From the NCBI GenBank assembly GCA_902780865.1, contig CACZHC010000001.1, positions 3,554 to 67,553 on the forward strand: DNA of 64,000 nt. Direction: 5' to 3'. This document shows positions 2,108 to 64,000 of the stretch, piece after piece. Positions within the stretch are counted from its first letter, which is position 1; each line of letters opens with the position of its first letter. This stretch comes from an uncultured bacterium (GTDB lineage Bacteria > Verrucomicrobiota > Kiritimatiellia > RFP12 > UBA1067). Position numbers and translations under genes: made by a program. The notes beneath the pieces were generated by a model. The model saw only the letters and a list, made by a program, of their open reading frames with translations. It was not told where the DNA came from and searched no databases.

Positions 2108-4306
2108 ATGAAAGGGAAAGCCATGAAAAATAACAACATGCTCGTGACCGTTATTGCGGCCTTTGCGACATTTGCTTCCGCCTGGGCGGCAAATGTCACC
2201 TGGAACAATTCGACTGGCAACGGCCAGTGGTCCGATCCCGACAACTGGGCCGGAGGCGCACTGCCCGGCGAAGGGGATGTGGCTGTCATCGGTTCGGATG
2301 TGACGCTTGACGTTGACACGACGGTATTGGGGGTGTCGTTGTCCGGCTCCCCGGTGATTGATGGCGCAGAGCATCGGCTGACCGTCTTGAACGGAACGGT
2401 CACGGGCGGATCGAAGCCCGTCGTCAAGTGCAAGCTCGTCTTCCCTGAAGGCGTGGCAGCGACCGTCAGGCCTGCGCAGGGATATGGCAACATAATGACG
2501 ATCGAGGGCGGAATCGATGGCGGCGTTTCCGTTGCGTCCACGGGCGGGAATCAGAATTTCAATATTCGCTACACGAACGAGACCATTCGAACTGGGGCGC
2601 TCCTTGCGGACTTTGGCACGACGTTCTTTTCCCCGCTGGACGTAAGCAGCATCACTCTTTCCGATCCCTGGGCGGATGCGAACGGCAACTCCCCGACGTT
2701 CACCTTCTGGCCATCGGCGACTCTGGCCAACGATACGGTTATCACGACGAAACAAGGTATTGTCACGGTGGCCTTCACGGATCAATACGAAACCGCTCCC
2801 GTCACGTTCACGGTCCCCAAGCTGCACCTGGCTTCGGCGGGCAGGACGTCGCTGTCCTGCAATTTCTATGGCGTACAGAACTTTGTCAGGATCAATGCGT
2901 TTGAGCGCGATTCCGGAGCGATGCTCCACATCAACAACAGAAAGCTCGGTTCCTCGGCCTTCGATCCGGGAGTTAACGCCGGCATCTTCATCCAGGGGAT
3001 TCCGACGGATGCACAGGGGCGCGTCCCTGCCTGGGCCTACAACGACAGCTACCGCATCAAGGTGCTGGGAAACGGGGCTCTGGTTCCTGTTGCGTATAAC
3101 GACTACGCCAACCTCGCAGCGGAAATCGCGGTCAACGATCCGACGGGACTCTATCGCCTCCACTATGTGCAGGACTCGGCGCTGACGGCGGACACCGACA
3201 TCGATTCGCTCATCATGAACGGCAACTTCAATTCAACGGACAACACGATGCGTCTCGACCTCGGCGACTACGACCTTCGCCTGCATGGCGGCGCCCTCGC
3301 CTTGCGCGACTACGCCTCGAAGGAAATCTCCGCATCCGGGGACGGCGCCCTTGTCATCGCGGCAGACCAAGCGGTGTTCAACTTTACATATAATGTCAAC
3401 CGTATCGAAATCTCCGCTCCGATCGAATGGGAGAAGCCTGCCGGTTCTACCGTCGATTATCCCGACTTCCTCATGCCGTACTATTCCGGGGCCGAGACTA
3501 TCTTCTCCGGCGAGGATCGCGTCGGCGACTGGGGCGCGCTCAGCGCGGACGGCCGCAACAATGGCGGCTCGCTGCTCATCTTCGACGGCCCGTCCGACCG
3601 GACGTTCCACGGCCCCGTCGGCGGACGGTTCTGGATGCGCAAGCGCGGCACCGGCACGCTCACCTTCGCCGGGCCCGACATCACGCGCGGTCGACAGATA
3701 TTCGTCGAGGACGGTACCGTGGTCATTGCAGATAACAACGCGCCAAGGATTGACTGCGTCACGAATGGTGCGACGCTCAGAGTCGAGAAGGATATTGTCT
3801 GGACCCAGACAGCAGTTGTTTGGGATGACAGCGTCCTTGAGGGATTCGGGACACTGAATCCAGGACTTAACCAGAATTACCTTCAGCCGGGATGCATTCT
3901 GCGTGGCGGCACGGCAAGCGAGCCTGGCACGTTCTCGTTCGGCGGTCAGGTGGTGATTCCAACGAACGTCGTTATCGACGTCGGTTTTACGGGTGATGCT
4001 CACGGGCAGATACATGTCGGCGGCAAGTTGACGTTCAGGTCCAATCTCGATACGGAGGTCGTTGTTCGCGTGGCGGATGTCGACAAGACGGCGGCCATTC
4101 GCCCGTCTGACACGTTTGTTGTTCTCGATTACGGTGGTAGCCTCGAGAACTACGATGCAGGGCGCATTTCATTCGTCGTGGAAAATGTCTCGCCGAAGAG
4201 ACTCGATACGAGCGCGGCGCAGCTTGCATTTAATACCAAGACGAAGACGCTGTCGGTCACAGGCATCAAGAGTGTGAGCAAGGGCCTCGCCGTCTTCATT
4301 AGGTGA
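2108..4306 (+). CDS. Secreted autotransporter-associated beta-strand repeat (PATR-like) / beta-helix surface protein; ends ..KGLAVFIR
   Basis: Signal peptide MKGKAMKNNNMLVTVIAAFATFASAWA. N-terminal motif NVTWNNSTGNGQWSDPDNWAGGALP is typical of PVC-group PATR proteins. Gly/Thr/Asn-rich beta repeats. Start chosen at the first ATG with an n-region (2108); the track ORF begins upstream at 2000. Confidence 0.6.
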   Translation: MKGKAMKNNNMLVTVIAAFATFASAWAANVTWNNSTGNGQWSDPDNWAGGALPGEGDVAVIGSDVTLDVDTTVLGVSLSGSPVIDGAEHRLTVLNGTVTGGSKPVVKCKLVFPEGVAATVRPAQGYGNIMTIEGGIDGGVSVASTGGNQNFNIRYTNETIRTGALLADFGTTFFSPLDVSSITLSDPWADANGNSPTFTFWPSATLANDTVITTKQGIVTVAFTDQYETAPVTFTVPKLHLASAGRTSLSCNFYGVQNFVRINAFERDSGAMLHINNRKLGSSAFDPGVNAGIFIQGIPTDAQGRVPAWAYNDSYRIKVLGNGALVPVAYNDYANLAAEIAVNDPTGLYRLHYVQDSALTADTDIDSLIMNGNFNSTDNTMRLDLGDYDLRLHGGALALRDYASKEISASGDGALVIAADQAVFNFTYNVNRIEISAPIEWEKPAGSTVDYPDFLMPYYSGAETIFSGEDRVGDWGALSADGRNNGGSLLIFDGPSDRTFHGPVGGRFWMRKRGTGTLTFAGPDITRGRQIFVEDGTVVIADNNAPRIDCVTNGATLRVEKDIVWTQTAVVWDDSVLEGFGTLNPGLNQNYLQPGCILRGGTASEPGTFSFGGQVVIPTNVVIDVGFTGDAHGQIHVGGKLTFRSNLDTEVVVRVADVDKTAAIRPSDTFVVLDYGGSLENYDAGRISFVVENVSPKRLDTSAAQLAFNTKTKTLSVTGIKSVSKGLAVFIR

Positions 4307-4345: not shown

Positions 4346-4420
4346 TCAACAGCGGAGATTCGCGGCGTCGGCAACACGGCTTTTGTAGCTCGCAAGATGG
4401 ATAAAGTGGAGGATACTGAG

Positions 4421-6238
4421 ATGAAGTTGGCTTATATCATTCAATGCGTCGCGCTTGCCGCGATGGTCGCGCATGCAGACGAGGCGGCGATTGCGCCGAA
4501 ATGCCTCTATTCGGTGTCGGAGACAAGCCAGGAGACCAAGGTGAAGCCAGAGAAGGTCGTGACGGTCTCGGCTGGCGGCGTGGTCTCGGTCGCGGGCTCA
4601 GGCGCGGAATATCCGTGCGTAGACTTCGTTCCGGCGAATGGCGTGTGGGATCTCTCGCCGTGGGGACACATCGAGACGCAGGTGAAGAATACCTCTGACA
4701 TGCCGATTTCCGTCAACATGCGCGTCGACCATACCGATCCCTTCCAGAGCAACACGGAAATCGCCTACCTGAAGCCCGGCGAGTCGCGCACCTTGAAGGT
4801 CATCTTCGGCTACCAGTACGGCTTCAAGCCAGGTCCGAAACTCGACCCTTCCAAGATAAAGCTCGTCAAACTCTTCGTCGGCGGGAAGAGCGACAAGACG
4901 CGCACTTTCACTTTCACCGACATCTTCGCGAACGGTCCCGCCGGAGAGAAGCCGCCGCTGAATCCTAACTACGTCGTCACGGTTCCCGAAAACGGCGTGA
5001 TGATTCCGATGAAGAAGGGCACGGACAAGAACCTTTCCACATTCAATGACGCAAAGGCCGTCTTCACTAAGAGCGGGACTGTTGCCGTGACACTCGGAGA
5101 ACGCGAATGGGGCGCGGTTCGCGTGAAGCCCGCCATGGGCAGCTGGAACCTCGGCTCGTGGCTCAAGGTGAAGGCCGTAGTCAAAAACACCTCCAGCACT
5201 GAAGTTGCCCCGCGCATGAAGATCGACGGCGGCGAGGCGATTGAGACTGACGAGACGCCGATCGCCCCGGGAAAGACCGCCGTCATCGAAAAGACTTTCT
5301 TCGCCCCGAAGAGCTGGTGCGCGAAGGAAGGTCAGGGCACGCTGCCAGGCTGCACATACAAGTTCGAGAGCCATCGCGTGAAGGGCGTAGTATTCAGCGC
5401 CAAGGGGCAGCGCAAGACGTTTGAGATTCTCGAAATCAAGGCCGAGGATGTCATCGCGGAGCTTCCCGGTTGGCTCGGCAAGAAACCGCCAGTGCCGGGA
5501 GACTGGAAGCTCGTCTGGCACGACGAGTTCAACGGGAATGAGCTTAATGACGATTGGGAAATCTATACGGCGAACTACTGGGACAAGCGCACGCACTTCA
5601 CGAAGGACAACGCCTTCCTGCGCGGCGGCAATGCAGTCCTCAAGTACGAGAAGAAGACCGGACACCAGAACGACGATCCATCCGCGAAGACGACGGACTA
5701 TGCATGCGGATTCCTCAGCACCTACGGAAGGAAGACGTGGACGTACGGATACTTTGAGGCGCGCATGAAGCTCCCGACGGCTCCAGGGCTCTGGCCTGCA
5801 TTCTGGACGATGCCAGACCGCGGCGCGGACAAGGGGCCGCAGTGGGTTCGCGCCGATACGAAGAACGGCGGCATGGAGTTCGACGTCATGGAGCACCTCA
5901 CGGCGTGGGGCCCGCATCGCTTCAATATCGCCTGCCACTGGGACGGCTATGGCAAGGACCACAAGTCGGTCGGCACATCTGGCGCGTATCTTCCTGCGGA
6001 CAAGGACGGCTACATAGTCGTGGGCTTCCTCTGGCTGCCGGGACAGTATGTAGTCTACGGGAACGGCGTGGAAATCGGACGTCTCGAATCGAGCCGCATT
6101 TGCAATGTGCCGAGTTACGTGATACTATACATGGTCTCCGGCGGATGGGCGAACGTGGCGCTCGAAGACGAGAAGCTCCCCGACGAGTTCCAGATCGACT
6201 GGATCCGCGTCTGGCAGCGCAGGGACATGGTGAAGTAA
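4421..6238 (+). CDS. Secreted glycoside hydrolase family 16 (laminarinase/beta-glucanase-like) with N-terminal beta-sandwich domains
   Basis: Signal peptide MKLAYIIQCVALAAMVAHA. C-terminal region WKLVWHDEFNGNELNDDWEI...GLWPAFWTMPD...MEFDVMEH carries the GH16 E-x-D-x-x-E catalytic motif. Confidence 0.75.
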   Translation: MKLAYIIQCVALAAMVAHADEAAIAPKCLYSVSETSQETKVKPEKVVTVSAGGVVSVAGSGAEYPCVDFVPANGVWDLSPWGHIETQVKNTSDMPISVNMRVDHTDPFQSNTEIAYLKPGESRTLKVIFGYQYGFKPGPKLDPSKIKLVKLFVGGKSDKTRTFTFTDIFANGPAGEKPPLNPNYVVTVPENGVMIPMKKGTDKNLSTFNDAKAVFTKSGTVAVTLGEREWGAVRVKPAMGSWNLGSWLKVKAVVKNTSSTEVAPRMKIDGGEAIETDETPIAPGKTAVIEKTFFAPKSWCAKEGQGTLPGCTYKFESHRVKGVVFSAKGQRKTFEILEIKAEDVIAELPGWLGKKPPVPGDWKLVWHDEFNGNELNDDWEIYTANYWDKRTHFTKDNAFLRGGNAVLKYEKKTGHQNDDPSAKTTDYACGFLSTYGRKTWTYGYFEARMKLPTAPGLWPAFWTMPDRGADKGPQWVRADTKNGGMEFDVMEHLTAWGPHRFNIACHWDGYGKDHKSVGTSGAYLPADKDGYIVVGFLWLPGQYVVYGNGVEIGRLESSRICNVPSYVILYMVSGGWANVALEDEKLPDEFQIDWIRVWQRRDMVK

Positions 6239-58535: not shown

Positions 58536-60065
58536 ATGAGCGATTTTTTGCTGTCGCTTAAGGATGTATCGCTCGCGTTCGGCGGACCGAGCGTCTTGGA
58601 TTGCGTGTCGCTTTCCATCTCGAAGGGGCTTCGCGCCGCGCTCACGGGGCGAAACGGCGAGGGCAAGTCCACTTTGCTGAAGGTGATCGCCGGAAAGCTC
58701 GAGCCGGATTCCGGCGAAATCGTCCGCGCACCTGGGCTCAAGACCATATACGTCTCGCAGGAAGTCCCTGCAGACCGCCCGGATGATCCCGGCTTCAACG
58801 CGCTTTCAGGCGGCCGCCGCCGCAGGAGCATTCTCGAGGCGGCGCTGCTGGCGCGTCCCGACCTCCTGCTTCTCGACGAACCGACGAACCACCTCGACAT
58901 GGAGACGATCGACTGGCTCGAGGCGATGCTGCGCCGATCCCGCGACATGGCCGTTGTCGTCGTCACTCACGACAGGCGCTTTCTCAGGCGTGTTGCGACG
59001 AAGATATTCGACCTCGACCGCGGCGAACTCTCCGGCTGGGAATGCAACTACCCGACGTTTCTCAAGCGCAAGGCCGAGCTCTTGGCGGACGAAGCGGTCT
59101 ACTGGGAGCGCAAGTCAAAGAAACTCGCTCAGGAGGAAGCGTGGATCAGGCGCGGCGTAAAGGCGAGGACTACGCGCAACGAAGGGCGGGTCGCCGCGCT
59201 TATGAAGCTGCGCGAGGAATTCGCGGCGCGGCGTGCCGCAGTGGGTTCCGCGACGCTCAAGCTCGACACCGCGGCTCCTGGCGGCATGGGCGTCCTCAAG
59301 ATAAAGAACGTCTCCTTTTCCTATCCCGGCTCGAAGCGTCCCGTGATTTCCGATTTCACGGCGACCGTGCTGCGCGGCGAGAGGATTGGCATCCTCGGCG
59401 CAAACGGCGTTGGCAAGACGACGCTCCTGAACTTGCTCACGGGGCGTCTCAAGCCGACGTCGGGCGAGGTTGTGCGCGGCACTGGCGTGGAGCTTTCGTT
59501 CTTCGACCAGCTTCGCAGCGAGATGCGCCCGGAGCTTACCGTTGGCGAGAACATCGCCTCCGACCGCGACGAAGTCGTAGTGGGAGGCGTGAGGAAGCAC
59601 GTCTATTCCTACCTTGCCGATTTCCTCTTCACGCCCGAGCGCGTGCGCACTCCGGTCAAGGCGCTTTCCGGCGGCGAGCGCGCGCGGCTTATGCTTGCGA
59701 AGCTTTTCCTGAAGCCCGCGAATCTGCTCGTGATGGACGAGCCGACGAACGACCTCGACGTGGAGACGCTGGAACTTCTGGAAGAGCAGCTTCTCGCGTA
59801 TTCGGGGACGCTGCTTCTGGTTAGCCACGACCGCGAGTTCTTGAACAACGTCGTGACTTCGACTTTCGCGCTCGACGGCGACGGAACCGTCAGGCAGTTC
59901 CCTGGCGGGTATGACGACTACGAGCGGCAGAGGGCGGCGAAACCGAAGGTGGACGTGCCGCCTGCGCCCCCGGCAAAGACGAAGCTCGACATCCGCGTCC
60001 GCGTCAAGCCCCTTGCCGCCGCGAAGAAGAAAGAGTTCACCTGCAATCCATTTGCAAATCTTTAA
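58536..60065 (+). CDS. ABC-F family ATP-binding cassette protein (Uup-like) with a shortened, degenerate first NBD
   Basis: Walker A GRNGEGKST. LSGGRRRRS...LLLLDEPTNHLD. Linker LAQEEAWIRRGVKARTTRNEGRV (strongly Uup-like). Second NBD GANGVGKTT, LSGGERARL, LLVMDEPTNDLD. Confidence 0.8.
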   Translation: MSDFLLSLKDVSLAFGGPSVLDCVSLSISKGLRAALTGRNGEGKSTLLKVIAGKLEPDSGEIVRAPGLKTIYVSQEVPADRPDDPGFNALSGGRRRRSILEAALLARPDLLLLDEPTNHLDMETIDWLEAMLRRSRDMAVVVVTHDRRFLRRVATKIFDLDRGELSGWECNYPTFLKRKAELLADEAVYWERKSKKLAQEEAWIRRGVKARTTRNEGRVAALMKLREEFAARRAAVGSATLKLDTAAPGGMGVLKIKNVSFSYPGSKRPVISDFTATVLRGERIGILGANGVGKTTLLNLLTGRLKPTSGEVVRGTGVELSFFDQLRSEMRPELTVGENIASDRDEVVVGGVRKHVYSYLADFLFTPERVRTPVKALSGGERARLMLAKLFLKPANLLVMDEPTNDLDVETLELLEEQLLAYSGTLLLVSHDREFLNNVVTSTFALDGDGTVRQFPGGYDDYERQRAAKPKVDVPPAPPAKTKLDIRVRVKPLAAAKKKEFTCNPFANL

Positions 60066-60157
60066 ATACTGATTCCTGGCCCCTGGCCCCTGTGCACTGA
60101 CCCCTAATCTCGTTTCCCCTCGCGTTTTGGGAGCAAATCTGCTATAATATCGCACCG

Positions 60158-61651
60158 ATGAAGCGATATTGGTTTTTGGCGGCCTTCGGGTTCGTCGTGC
60201 TTGCGTTTGCGGCCGTGTGGCTCGGGGCCCTCAATCAAGACGAGGGATGGTATCTTTATGCCGCGCGTCTCGTGTCGGAGGGCAAGACGCCGTACCGCGA
60301 CTTTTTCTACACCCAGGCGCCCGTAATGCCAATCGTATACGCGGCGTTCACTTCCGTGTGGAATTCGTTCGGGCTTCTTGGCGCAAGGATCCTTACCATC
60401 GTCATTGGTGCGCTGGGCCTCGCTTTTTTCTGCGCCCTTGCCGCACGCCTCGTCGCGCCTGGCCGCCGTGCGCTGGCCGCGCTTGCCGTCTTTCTCCTGC
60501 TCGGCTCGAATCTCTACCACCTCTACTACGTCGCGATTCCGAAGACATACGCGCTTGCGTCGCTTTTCGTGGCAATCGGCTTCTTCCTCCTGACCTTCGC
60601 CCGCACGCCGACCCTTCGCGGGGGCGTCTTCGCGTTCGTGTCGGGGCTTTCGCTCGCATTCGCGTGCGGCACGCGCATCAGTCTCGGAGTGATTCTCGTG
60701 GTTGTCGGTTTGGGGCTGCTTCTCTCGATTCGCACCTGGGGCAAGGCCTTCCTTTGGTTCGGCCTCGGCGGCGCGTTCGGCCTCGCTGTCGTCTACGGCT
60801 TCTTCCTATGCGACCCCACGGCACGCGCCGGGCTCTTTGCCGCGCAGGCCTACCACGCCGCCCGAGGCGGCTTTGACCCGGTCTTCACGGTCGGTTCCGT
60901 GTCGCGGCTCGTCAGGTGGTATCTGCCTGTTTTTGTCCTGCTTGGGCTTGGTTTTGCGCACCGTAGCGAAGCCGGTGGCGAAATCGATGCGGTCCTCGTC
61001 GCGCGACTTGCGTTTGCAAGCGTCGTCGCCGTTTTTCTCGTACAGATGCTCGCGCCGTTCCCCTACGAGGACTATCAGGTTCCGGTAATGGGGCTTCTTG
61101 CCGTCTTCGCCGTCGTGCTCTTCTTCGGCCGTCCGGCCTCCGTGCCTTCGCGCGGGCTTCTGCTGACGCTTGGCCTTGCATGGGCCGCGTCGTTCGGCTC
61201 TCCGCTTCTCGAAAAGTGGACGACGAACGGTCAGGACAGGTTCTGGACCCACAAGAAGGAGCAGTGCGAGCTCGCACAGCTGCGAGACGTAGCGCGCACC
61301 ATCGAGGAGGAGGACCCGAACGGCGACATGCTGCTGACCCAGGACCTCTATCTCGCCATCGAGACCGGGCGCAAGGTCCCTGCCGGGCTCGAGATGGGGC
61401 CGTTCAGCATGCTTTCGGACGAGGAATGGCGCAAGCTCCTCTCGTCCGCGCCGTGCAAGATGGCCGCTCTTTCCGGCTACTCGTTCGCCATAAATCCGCC
61501 TCGCTGCGACGAGGTGCCGATCGACAGGCAGATCGAGTACTGGAGCCTCCTGAAGAAGGACTACGACCTCGTGATGAGGGAAGATGCGTTCGGGCAGAAC
61601 GCCACTGCTCTTCTCATACTCAAGCGCAAGGCGGACAGGACTGACAGGTGA
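60158..61651 (+). CDS. Integral-membrane glycosyltransferase, ArnT/PMT (GT39/GT83)-like
   Basis: About 11 predicted hydrophobic TM segments. N-terminal DEGWYLYAARLVSEGKTPYRDFFYTQAPVMP resembles the ArnT/PMT family loop-1 region. Confidence 0.5.
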   Translation: MKRYWFLAAFGFVVLAFAAVWLGALNQDEGWYLYAARLVSEGKTPYRDFFYTQAPVMPIVYAAFTSVWNSFGLLGARILTIVIGALGLAFFCALAARLVAPGRRALAALAVFLLLGSNLYHLYYVAIPKTYALASLFVAIGFFLLTFARTPTLRGGVFAFVSGLSLAFACGTRISLGVILVVVGLGLLLSIRTWGKAFLWFGLGGAFGLAVVYGFFLCDPTARAGLFAAQAYHAARGGFDPVFTVGSVSRLVRWYLPVFVLLGLGFAHRSEAGGEIDAVLVARLAFASVVAVFLVQMLAPFPYEDYQVPVMGLLAVFAVVLFFGRPASVPSRGLLLTLGLAWAASFGSPLLEKWTTNGQDRFWTHKKEQCELAQLRDVARTIEEEDPNGDMLLTQDLYLAIETGRKVPAGLEMGPFSMLSDEEWRKLLSSAPCKMAALSGYSFAINPPRCDEVPIDRQIEYWSLLKKDYDLVMREDAFGQNATALLILKRKADRTDR

Positions 61652-63405
61652 AGCCGATTGAACTGAGGCACAGGATTCTCGAGACCGTTTCGAAGAACGG
61701 CGGCCATCTCGCGTCGTCGCTTGGCGCGGTCGAGATAGCGATGGCCCTTGCCGAAGTCTTCGATCCAGAGACCGACCGCGTGGTGTGGGATGTCGGCCAC
61801 CAGGCATACGCGTGGAAGATTCTCACCGGCCGCGCAGACAGCTTTGCCACACTCCGCAAGCTGGGCGGGATATCCGGTTTCCCCAATCCCGCCGAGTCGA
61901 AGGCCGATGCCGCCGTGGCGGGTCACGCGGGCGTCGCGCTTTCCGTCGCCGAGGGGCTCGCGGCCGCGCGCGACAGGCGAGGCGGAAACGAGCATGTTGT
62001 CGCGGTCATAGGCGACGCGTCGATCGCGAACGGCACGAGTTTCGAGGCGCTCAACAACTGCGCATCGGCGACGAAGCGGCTCATCGTCATCCTGAACGAC
62101 AACGAAATGTCGATAGCGAAGCCGGCCGGAAGCATCGCGAAGGGGCTTGGTCGCCTCACGTCGGGCATACGCTACAACCGTGCGAAGAACGTCGCCAAGA
62201 AGATCGGCCGCGCGCTTCGGCTGTCGTTCCTCTATGGTCTTGTCCACTGGGTGAAGAACCGCCTCAAGACGATGATGCTCCGCAACGTCTGGTTCGAGGA
62301 GTTTGGCTTCCACTACCTTGGCCCGGTCGACGGCCACGATCTTGCCGCGCTCGTCTCGGCGCTCACGGCTGCGAAGGAAGAGAACCGCCCTGTTCTTCTG
62401 CATGTCGTCACGAAGAAGGGCCATGGCTACGGCCCGGCCGAGAAGGACCCGACGGCATGGCACGGCGTTGGGCCTTTCCCCTGGCCTTCGACTTCCGACA
62501 CCGTCGATCTTGCGCTTCCGACGGACGGCCAGAAGGCGCGTCCGGCGCCCGGCTGGAGCGAGGTCTTTGGCGAGGCGCTGTGCGAGCTCGCGAAGGAAGA
62601 CGACCGCGTCGTGGCGCTGACGGCGGCGATGCGCGATGGAACGGGGCTTGCGCCGTTTGCCGCGCGCTTCCCGGATCGTTTCTTCGACGTCGGCATAGCC
62701 GAAGGCCACATGGTAGCGTTCGCAGGCGGGCTTGCCGCGGGCGGGATGCGCCCTGTCGTCGCCGTCTACTCGACGTTCCTCCAGCGGTCCGTGGACCAGG
62801 TTATGCACGATGTGGCGATCTCCAACCTGCCCGTCGTCTTCTGCGTAGACCGCGCCGGCGTCGTCGGTGCAGACGGAGTGACGCATCAGGGGCTCTACGA
62901 CATCGCGATGCTCAGGTGCCTCCCCAATGTGACGATATGCCAGCCGAAGGACGCCGAGGACATGAAGGCGCTGCTAAAGGAAGCCCTCGACCGCAACGGC
63001 CCGACCGTAATCCGCTACCCCCGCGGCAAGGTCCCGACGGGACGCGGGAGCGAGGCGCCTGCGATCAATCAAACAATCAAACAATCAAACAATCAAACAA
63101 TTGCCATTTGGGCCACCGGCGACTGGTACGGGAAGGCGTGCGAAGTCGCGTCCCGCGTCGGCGGGATTGCGGTGCATGCCCGCTACCTGAAGCCGTTCGA
63201 CAGCGAGCTCCTTGCCAAGCAGCGCGCGGCGGGAATGAAGATCGTGAGTCTTGAAAACGGGGCTGTCGCCGGCGGTTTTGGAGAGGCGATTGGCGCCGAC
63301 GTGAAGTTCGGGTGGCCCGACGCGTTCATCCCCCACGGCACGCAGGCCGAGCTTGAAAGGAAATACGGCCTCGACGTGGAATCCATAGTTGCGTCTCTGC
63401 GTTAA
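61648..63405 (+). CDS. dxs: 1-deoxy-D-xylulose-5-phosphate synthase
   Basis: GGHLASSLGAVEIAMALAEVFDPETDRVVWDVGHQAYAWKILTGR...VIGDASIANGTSFEALNN..ILNDNEMSI...; canonical DXS TPP-binding and transketolase motifs. Contains an in-frame 8-mer tandem repeat at 63066-63101. Confidence 0.93.
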   Translation: MKPIELRHRILETVSKNGGHLASSLGAVEIAMALAEVFDPETDRVVWDVGHQAYAWKILTGRADSFATLRKLGGISGFPNPAESKADAAVAGHAGVALSVAEGLAAARDRRGGNEHVVAVIGDASIANGTSFEALNNCASATKRLIVILNDNEMSIAKPAGSIAKGLGRLTSGIRYNRAKNVAKKIGRALRLSFLYGLVHWVKNRLKTMMLRNVWFEEFGFHYLGPVDGHDLAALVSALTAAKEENRPVLLHVVTKKGHGYGPAEKDPTAWHGVGPFPWPSTSDTVDLALPTDGQKARPAPGWSEVFGEALCELAKEDDRVVALTAAMRDGTGLAPFAARFPDRFFDVGIAEGHMVAFAGGLAAGGMRPVVAVYSTFLQRSVDQVMHDVAISNLPVVFCVDRAGVVGADGVTHQGLYDIAMLRCLPNVTICQPKDAEDMKALLKEALDRNGPTVIRYPRGKVPTGRGSEAPAINQTIKQSNNQTIAIWATGDWYGKACEVASRVGGIAVHARYLKPFDSELLAKQRAAGMKIVSLENGAVAGGFGEAIGADVKFGWPDAFIPHGTQAELERKYGLDVESIVASLR

Positions 63406-63447
63406 AACATAAAACATCAAACTTCAAACATCAAACTTTAAGCTTTT

Positions 63448-64000
63448 ATGGCCAATGTACACGGAGTTGCGGGCGAGTGGGCCCGGGTGAAGGGCATGGT
63501 GACAGGGCTTTGGCCTCTGTTTCTCGGCGTGTTCATAGCTGGTTTCGCCGTCGCCGCGACGGCTTTTGCCGACGTGGTGTGGGGGCTTGCGCTGCTTGTG
63601 GCGGCGATCACATATTCATGCTGGAGCCTTTTGAAGGGGCTTCGCCACGCCGAGCGCTTCTTCAAGGGCGCGCGCGGCGAGGAGCGCGTCTCCAGCATAC
63701 TCGCGCATCTGCCCGACGCCTACCACGTCTTCAACGACTTTGTCGCCGACGGCAAGCATGTCGACCATGTCGTTGCCGGGCCGGCGGGCGTGTTCGCCGT
63801 CGAGACGAAATACTGGCGCGGCAATGTGACGGTCGAGGACGGGCGCATACTCCTCGACGGGCGGCTTCCCGACCGCGACCCCCTCGAGCAGGCGAAGAAG
63901 GAGGCGCAGCTCGTCAAGACGGCGCTGGCCGCCGCCGGCTGGAACGGCGCGGTGACGCCCGTCCTTGCGTTCGCGTCCGACACGTTCAGGCAGCATATTG
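63448..64000 (+). CDS. NERD-domain-containing membrane protein, 3'-partial (runs off the window end)
   Basis: MANVHGVAGEWARVKGMVTGLWPLFLGVFIAGFAVAATAF.. (TM segment), then ..HVFNDFVADGKHVDHVVAGPAGVFAVETKYWRGNV.. matching the NERD core. Not in the ORF track because no stop occurs within the window. Confidence 0.55.
   Translation, partial: MANVHGVAGEWARVKGMVTGLWPLFLGVFIAGFAVAATAFADVVWGLALLVAAITYSCWSLLKGLRHAERFFKGARGEERVSSILAHLPDAYHVFNDFVADGKHVDHVVAGPAGVFAVETKYWRGNVTVEDGRILLDGRLPDRDPLEQAKKEAQLVKTALAAAGWNGAVTPVLAFASDTFRQHI

Follow-up and report, generated by a model that had tools for sequence, protein, structure and literature searches.

Tandem heptanucleotides have been reported as the most abundant class of long simple sequence repeats (SSRs) in many bacterial genomes (Mrázek 2007, as cited in PMC4679880). 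They have rarely been studied in detail (PMC4692102). Heptameric SSRs, among them the GGGNATC repeats of Xanthomonas and Nostoc, are under-represented on the coding strand of open reading frames (ORFs) and enriched on the sense strand at stop codons, which they overlap or follow by no more than 50 bp, and a preference for approximately four copies has been noted (PMC4692102). Tandem heptanucleotides are also cited from Calothrix PCC7601 (in PMC4692102). The hmw genes of Haemophilus influenzae have SSRs with units of seven, eight or nine nucleotides that differ by strain and have been proposed to mediate phase variation, and an intragenic (AATTTTG)14 tract is associated with a frameshift (PMC2651432). 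Here we describe two arrays of this general kind in 64,000 nt of DNA from an uncultured Kiritimatiellia bacterium (contig CACZHC010000001.1, positions 3,554 to 67,553; this whole stretch is referred to below as the window). The first, a perfect array of the octanucleotide CAAACAAT, lies in frame inside dxs, which encodes the essential isoprenoid-pathway enzyme DXS, while the second, a heptanucleotide array, directly follows the dxs stop codon. In our view, the octamer array probably represents one of the alleles of a hypervariable, disordered segment that joins domains II and III of DXS and is shaped by slippage and by constraints on frame and length.

Like the 5-11-nt long SSRs of GC-rich bacteria (PMC4679880, PMC4692102), the dxs arrays consist of few copies of 7-8-nt units in DNA of more than 60% GC. 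Two units found in sister alleles, GGGGAAC and GGGAAGA, are G-tract heptamers comparable to GGGAATC and GGGGACT of the GGGNATC family. In that family, however, one unit type is found genome-wide, whereas in dxs a single site, in frame within the coding sequence of an essential enzyme, accommodates many units; within the 64-kb window there are two arrays with different units, and not one unit type at many loci. The stop codon placement typical of heptameric SSRs is observed for the array at the 3' junction of dxs and not for the intragenic array. The building blocks of this locus are known and it reveals no new molecular system. What is unusual is the combination: non-triplet units of many kinds replace one another at a single in-frame position in the gene of an essential enzyme, allelic diversity extends to the level of strains and a frame filter is visible.

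The octamer array occupies positions 63066..63101 of the + strand and corresponds to DXS residues 473-485. The local sequence reads …GCGATCAAT, then four copies of CAAACAAT, then TGCC… (ATCAAT plus the four copies spans 63064-63101). Tandem Repeats Finder reports a period of 8, 4.5 copies and 100% matches at 63066-63101, with a score of 72 that is the highest in the window, in agreement with the four perfect units and one partial unit recorded in the initial annotation of this DNA. All three frames of the unit are used, giving the peptide INQTIKQSNNQTI. The GC content is 0.25 for this array and 0.22 for the post-stop array, compared with 0.642 for dxs and 0.615 for the window; the genome value of ~65% assumed initially is therefore slightly high, but the AT-rich motif is indeed atypical of the window and the two arrays are its top two tandem repeats. 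When a two-unit 16-mer was searched allowing at most three mismatches, four matches were found at this site and none in the rest of the window, against 0.16 expected, a count reached by 0 of 100 shuffles. No further CAAACAAT array was identified within the 64-kb window, this search having covered the window and not the genome. By window codon usage, 9 of the 13 codons of the array are rare, with shares of 9% of Gln codons for CAA, 5% for TCA, 11% for ACA, 14% for AAA, 28% for AAT and 25% for ATT. The mRNA of the array is predicted to be unpaired (z=0.07). A promoter and terminator scan of 62800-63600 found neither in either array, and an Rfam search of 62500-64000 at a permissive threshold returned nothing relevant (a single weak match of 14.7 bits lies elsewhere). 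Viral contigs contain 17 exact matches to (CAAACAAT)3, which we regard as coincidental SSRs and not as a sign of a link to the dxs locus.

The dxs ORF (61648..63405, + strand) has a GTG start and encodes a 585-aa protein with 120 homologues at 70-94% identity. It scores 619.6 bits against TIGR00204 (cut-off 465.95), which identifies it as a DXS equivalog, and 515 bits against NF003933 (395). E. coli DXS (2O1S) aligns to residues 5-583 with an E-value of 3.4e-145. The three-domain DXS architecture (DXP_synthase_N, Transket_pyr and Transketolase_C) is present and collinear with solved structures, with Pfam matches to PF13292, PF02779 and, faintly, PF02780. Domain II ends with the sequence RYPRG (codons 63013..63027, + strand, residues 456-460), in which R456, Y457, P458, R459 and G460 are all invariant in the alignment, and domain III opens with the β-strand AIWATGDW (codons 63103..63126, + strand), in which W488, T490, G491 and D492 are invariant. 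Between these lies the hypervariable linker of 25 aa that contains the array (63028..63102, + strand, residues 461-485, KVPTGRGSEAPAINQTIKQSNNQTI).

The initial annotation described the region after RYPRG in other DXS proteins as a short loop. In E. coli it is in fact a segment of 27 aa made up of a surface linker and a conserved β-hairpin, the first of domain III. The hairpin motif of canonical DXS proteins, l-P-I-G-K-g-E-v-l-r-x-G (or …G-K/R-A/G-E-x-L-x-x-G…), is found in many phyla and is present in E. coli, in the more distant Kiritimatiellia locus L007 and in L004, L006 and L009-L012. This motif (…PIGKgEvlreG…) is absent from the window protein, from all 120 close homologues and from L001, L002 and L081. 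This absence is a clade-specific loss, which leaves the DXS family assignment unchanged. Because the window segment is 25 aa long and that of E. coli is 27 aa, the alignment to DXS orthologs that had been suggested as a check for an insertion indicates a substitution instead. An AlphaFold2 model (41-sequence alignment, mean predicted local distance difference test score [pLDDT] of 67) has confident strands at residues 453-457 and 485-489 with coil at 462-484 between them, pLDDT falling below 50 at 466-480, and an α/β domain III at 485-585. The linker is therefore predicted to be a disordered coil. In M. tuberculosis DXPS, the equivalent linker (residues 475-489) is located at the surface, DXPS structures differ in conformation chiefly in this linker, and the dimer contacts are made by domain III (PMC9068908). 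The window protein resembles these canonical enzymes (E. coli 2O1S, D. radiodurans 2O1X and M. tuberculosis DXPS; PMC9068908), whose crystal structures show a surface-exposed linker of variable conformation, in having a linker of similar total length after RYPRG. The canonical enzymes, however, keep the hairpin, while the window clade has a low-complexity, strain-variable replacement.

Linker diversity was assessed in approximately 160 proteins: the 120 homologues, which, where named, are recorded as metagenome-assembled genomes of Kiritimatiellae, and 40 cluster members. RYPRG and AIWATGDW are invariant in the 120 homologues, and the stretch between them cannot be aligned. There are 80 distinct linker peptides, ranging from 17 to 56 aa with a median of 24, so that the 25-aa window linker is close to the clade median. 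An identical (CAAACAAT)x4 array is carried by L168, L169 and L170, which are copies of the gene of the closest homologue from three independent ENA metagenome assemblies and the flanks of which are distinguished from those of the window by single-nucleotide polymorphisms (GGTCCCG/GGTTCCG, AGCGAG/AACGAG, GCGCCT/GCACCT and CATTTGG/CATCTGG). The exact window DXS protein is found on five contigs (NCBI and ENA). The assembly labels (STEW18/19, XIEF21 and WILK20; PRJEB21624) suggest a ruminant-gut origin.

Linker DNA was read for nine further alleles. Most are built of other repeats: (GTCAATCC)5.2 in L161, (CAAGCAAT)3 followed by CAAACAAT in L174, a degenerate CAAACAAT array with a 9-nt unit in L171, (GGGGAAY)n including GGGGAAC units in L163 and L176, (CCCTCAT)7.7 encoding a Pro-rich tract in L165, (GATTCGT)n followed by an inverted (CCACGAR)5.9 in L166 and (GGGAAGA)3 in L175. 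The linker of L173 is GC-rich, non-repetitive DNA with no array. In a tally of seven alleles other than that of the window, six have 7- or 8-nt arrays. In eight 6-8-kb loci of relatives, every 7-8-nt array of at least four copies belongs either to the linker or to the dxs 3' junction. Three-frame reading of such units produces peptide periods of 7 or 8 residues (GNGERGT, SHEPRAT, VNPSINQS and TRPLADSP), and self-identity of the 80 linker peptides peaks at offsets of 7 (z=8.6) and 8 (z=3.7), values which are descriptive as the peptides are interrelated. That the linker peptides are different frames of one DNA sequence was considered and rejected for the sequenced alleles, in which the DNA itself differs. 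Within the 90% cluster of the window protein, members ending in …ESIVASLR mostly have TRPLPNSSTPQPADSTARF or TRPLADSPTRPLADSAARI linkers.

Several linkers have further peculiarities. The two inverted heptamer arrays of L166 (3715-3793, GATTCGT… / …CCACGAA) are predicted to form a long mRNA hairpin within the coding region (-54.6 kcal/mol, z=-3.7). A common RNA-structure function was rejected after folding of six linker and junction segments, which share no structure and among which only L166 is significant (z=-0.14 for L173 and +1.5 for L161). L163 contains a linker insert of ~70 nt (4420-4500) that encodes NRPLWVGATHGEATKPSEASAE and has GGTAAC direct repeats at its ends; this type of insert is also present in proteins P0023, P0028 and P0149, so that several kinds of allele have it. 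A search of 193 loci and of the window did not reveal the L163 insert anywhere else, and within these sequences it is not a dispersed element. Other alleles differ by inserts of 15-17 aa (SSSAKATEDKRGTGNGE; VSPERSEPYQRSLEGC).

Comparison of closely related alleles indicates how the linker changes. L161 and L174 are 98-100% identical in DNA across the gene and their arrays are equal in length and register, but the unit is CAATCAAG in one and CAATCCGT in the other, with the same three positions changed in the majority of copies and one middle copy of L161 reading CAATCAAT. Unit evolution in this pair is concerted. Compared with L174, the L175 linker lacks three octamers (24 nt; 1.5 units remain, …ANQKI) and has three additional GGGAAGA heptamers (21 nt), for a net loss of one codon. 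Protein P0008 is shorter than P0007 by 5 aa (15 nt), a difference consistent with the loss of one heptamer and one octamer. In L194 (4340-4760, corresponding to approximately 63030-63405 of the window), there are two copies of GGGAAGA instead of the three in L175. The resulting frameshift ends DXS at 506 aa and leaves only an 80-aa ORF as a remnant of domain III. L194 is on a 29-kb contig and has 80 differences from L175 in ~4.6 kb; its frameshift allele may stem from a living population, from a lineage that is dying out or from an error of assembly. Size changes of this kind are what unit-wise slippage under selection for frame would be expected to leave behind, with three-unit steps persisting and the L194 step failing. 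The suggestion that the site is prone to slippage is borne out by this frameshifted sister allele, which lacks a single 7-nt unit, and by the three-unit steps between other alleles. The accompanying claim that any change in copy number would cause a frameshift holds for changes of one or two units, a liability of which L194 is direct evidence, but not for three units (24 nt) or for a 7+8-nt combination, the kinds of change actually observed. The possibility of an internal start for a separate domain III was also considered and rejected; no start codon is present at the boundary of array and strand in the window or in L161, and the first in-frame ATG of the frameshifted L194 is well inside domain III.

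Alleles also move between backgrounds. The protein pairs P0001/P0007, P0020/P0026 and P0043/P0070 are 99.8% identical in their cores yet have unrelated linkers, and clusters at no more than 2% core divergence contain three to four unrelated linker allele types. Conversely, the NQTIKQSNNQTI allele recurs on cores that are 83-95% identical to that of the window, and the HQALGTSSASPS… type recurs likewise. As unrelated linkers are found on near-identical backgrounds and the same allele is found on backgrounds more than 10% diverged, alleles appear to move by recombination. L168 and L176, for example, match perfectly over the ~1.3 kb before the linker, cannot be aligned in the linker itself and differ at 3-6 positions per 100 nt over the next ~700 nt, after which they are identical again, a pattern that looks like a recombination tract. 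The window is itself a mosaic. Most of its dxs is similar to the L168 group, while in the region 63300-63520 the end of dxs (…ESIVASLR), the heptamers at the junction and ~70 nt at the start of the NERD gene are similar to the L161/L174 group, and this places a probable recombination breakpoint near the dxs 3' end.

The second array (63405..63440, + strand) starts at the dxs stop codon and fills the spacer between dxs and the NERD gene. It is made up of ~4.6 copies of AAAACAT, CAAACTT and CAAACAT: the stop codon TAA at 63403-63405 is followed by AAAACAT AAAACAT CAAACTT CAAACAT CAAACTT, and the first base of the array is the last base of the stop codon. Tandem Repeats Finder detects it at 63405-63436 (period 7, 4.6 copies, 88% matches) with a score of 50, the second highest in the window, confirming the related repeat previously noted at this position. 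The heptamer spacer from stop to start is 44 nt in the window and 35 nt in L161 and L175. In relatives, the junction is (TTTYAAC)x5 in L161, L174 and L175 and a (CTCAACCC)x6.9 C-terminal extension in L171, while many others (such as L163, L168 and L173) have no spacer, dxs and NERD overlapping at ATGGCTAA with GGAGG upstream. In L161 (4750-4785), L174 (3278-3313) and L175, the stop codon is within the first unit, TTTTAAC. Proteins P0134, P0137, P0139 and P0128 have C-terminal extensions of 7-11 aa (…SAEFQLSTFNFQLLN; …SAEFQLSTFNF…), consistent with read-through of TTTCAAC. The junction array resembles the TAACTGA heptamers of marine Beggiatoaceae, cyanobacteria and Bacteroidetes in ending ~10 nt upstream of a start codon, a position for which a role in translation through S1/Csp binding has been suggested (PMC4679880). 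It differs from them in its unit, in its single occurrence here compared with hundreds there, and in the many relatives that lack the spacer and have the ATGGCTAA overlap.

The sequences and the model document the anatomy of the site, its allele diversity, the three-unit steps, the frameshift allele, the recombination tracts and the predicted disorder. Based on these results, we consider that the octamer array is probably one allele of a hypervariable domain II-III connector, and we infer slippage as the mechanism, near-neutrality of the sequence and a constraint on length. The β-hairpin that opens domain III has been lost, and the linker that is left appears constrained only by frame and by a minimum length (at least 17 aa), so that its DNA may behave much like an intergenic spacer. 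Arrays of 7- and 8-nt units would arise there from proto-repeats and would grow, shrink and homogenize by replication slippage or unequal exchange, with small pieces occasionally inserted as well. Because the units are not multiples of three, changes of one or two units would destroy domain III and be purged by selection. Only frame-preserving changes, of three units or of a 7+8-nt combination, would persist, and adjacent arrays could trade length. Homologous recombination would then shuffle old alleles between lineages, so that near-identical strains come to have unrelated linkers. The post-stop heptamer array would be the same kind of repeat at the other unconstrained spot of the gene.

Several observations fit this explanation poorly. 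The two arrays are within 350 nt of each other with none elsewhere in the 64 kb, which is more clustering than repeats arising at any unconstrained spot would predict. Copy number is also strikingly constant: the window, L168-170, L174 and the P0039/P0059 peptides all have 4.5 units, and the junction has five units in each of L161, L174 and L175, where the frame constraint does not apply; this constancy argues for low mutability or for selection at the sequence level. Finally, the arrays of the window and L168 are identical, yet the gene DNA is 83-94% identical, and this array identity needs either recent transfer or constraint. These points leave a small probability for a contingency switch, for selection for diversity and for a translational pause.

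If the linker has evolved as proposed, the locus is a natural example of non-triplet microsatellites within an essential, highly conserved enzyme, in which the domain II-III junction seems to need frame and minimum length but not sequence. It would show selection filtering slippage products, with three-unit steps, length trading and an occasional lethal-looking frameshift. In practical terms, the linker could be used as a strain-typing marker for rumen and gut Kiritimatiellae, and the tolerance of DXS here for seemingly arbitrary linkers may be useful for engineering or crystallization constructs. Annotators and family modellers should be aware that the start of 'Transketolase_C' is degenerate in this clade.

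An alternative explanation is that the linker encodes a programmed translational pause between domains II and III which aids co-translational folding and which is achieved by allele-specific means. The rare codons of the window array, the strongly folding inverted heptamers of L166, the four or more GGGG runs of L163 and L176 (capable of forming G-quadruplexes) and the Pro-rich tract of L165 could each act in this way. RNA structure is not shared among alleles, however, as the z-scores of the window, L173 and L161 are close to or above zero, and L173 has ordinary GC-rich codons and no repeat. Rare codons are also a trivial consequence of the AT-rich composition of the repeat. We therefore regard such a pause as unlikely.

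It is similarly doubtful that the linker is a selected multi-allelic site, whether as a contingency switch or under frequency-dependent selection by an antagonist that reads the protein or nucleic acid, in which case non-triplet arrays would serve as an evolvability device. For the first of these, slippage would reversibly switch full-length DXS on and off (phase variation), producing subpopulations with altered isoprenoid-precursor flux or dormancy. As expected for a phase-variable gene, dxs has a non-triplet tandem unit (8 nt x4.5) inside its ORF. A one-unit deletion allele encoding a truncated DXS is the assembled consensus of the L194 contig. H. influenzae hmw1A and hmw2A (PMC2651432) likewise have non-triplet units, the type of which varies by strain at one locus. 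The tracts of those genes are 13-38 units long, though, compared with 3-8 units in dxs and its relatives, and the 4.5 units of the window fall short of the ~6 or more to tens of units that typically give the high switching rate of phase-variable loci. Copy number is the same in all four independent copies of the window allele, the array is in the distal quarter of the ORF and not near the 5' end, and the product is a cytoplasmic housekeeping enzyme and not a surface or restriction-modification protein. In-frame three-unit variants dominate, a frameshift is seen in only 1 of ~160 proteins, and this apparent OFF allele may be erroneous or belong to a dead lineage. A contingency locus is thus quite improbable.

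Diversifying or balancing selection, in which a recognizer of the DXS segment or of dxs DNA or RNA (a phage or competitor factor, a protease or a nucleic-acid-guided system) favours rare alleles and thereby preserves a trans-lineage polymorphism, is in our view decidedly improbable. Unrelated alleles on 99.8% identical backgrounds and the same allele on those more than 10% diverged would be expected from such selection, as would the 100-nt windows beside the linker that are 95% and 89% identical between L161 and L174, compared with 98-100% elsewhere. DXS is cytoplasmic, however, with no known interacting antagonist. The mosaic recombination tracts occur all along the loci and are not confined to the linker, and high indel mutability combined with recombination can explain the pattern without selection.

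An origin of the array as a mobile-element scar or a foreign AT-rich insertion, including the target-site or recombination scar initially proposed, is very improbable and has been largely refuted. The array has 25% GC in a window of 61.5%, and the insert of L163 with its direct repeats, like the 15-17-aa inserts of other alleles, would fit such an origin. The window linker, in contrast, is at the clade median in length, does not exceed the segment of E. coli and is one of many alleles. No target-site duplication was found flanking it, a bounded insert being present in L163 alone, and the L163 insert was itself absent from the other sequences searched. Relatives have GC-richer CAATCAAG and CAATCCGT arrays whose units keep the same register as those of the window, and since the majority of the other arrays are GC-rich, a high AT content is not something the arrays have in common. 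An assembly or sequencing artefact, for which only the general difficulty of assembling repeats can be cited, can be dismissed, as the 36-nt array is shorter than reads and assembly k-mers and recurs in the three independent assemblies with marked flanks and, as protein, on five contigs.

The genes surrounding dxs are conserved in relatives in the order 497-aa membrane protein, dxs, NERD, S41 peptidase and dapF. The upstream ORF (60158..61651, + strand, 497 aa) encodes a predicted membrane protein that matched no family in NCBIfam. Its stop codon overlaps the GTG start of dxs (GTGA), and relatives retain both this 4-nt overlap and the gene order. A strong AT skew of -0.37 at 60001-61000, across this ORF, presumably reflects the T-rich codons of a hydrophobic membrane protein. 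At the N-terminus of DXS (61648-61760), residue 5 pairs with E. coli residue 34, so that the protein starts ~30 residues later than that of E. coli; the dxs start in relatives is at the same position as in the window. The 5' part of the NERD-domain gene (63450..64000, + strand) translates to MANVHGVAGEWARVKGMVTGLWPLFLGVF and leaves the window at its end. This translation matches the 225-aa PF08378 NERD genes found downstream of dxs in relatives. In L174 (3284-3723), the interval from dxs to the S41 peptidase gene is without a called NERD gene and measures only ~440 nt, compared with the 678-nt gene of relatives; the junction heptamer array is retained. Lastly, L171 has a 48-nt tandem duplication (3689-3785, 2.0 copies) encoding a Pro/Glu-rich peptide near the 5' end of its S41 peptidase gene. 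The product is 756 aa long compared with ~693 aa in relatives, and this variable low-complexity segment has a triplet-compatible unit.

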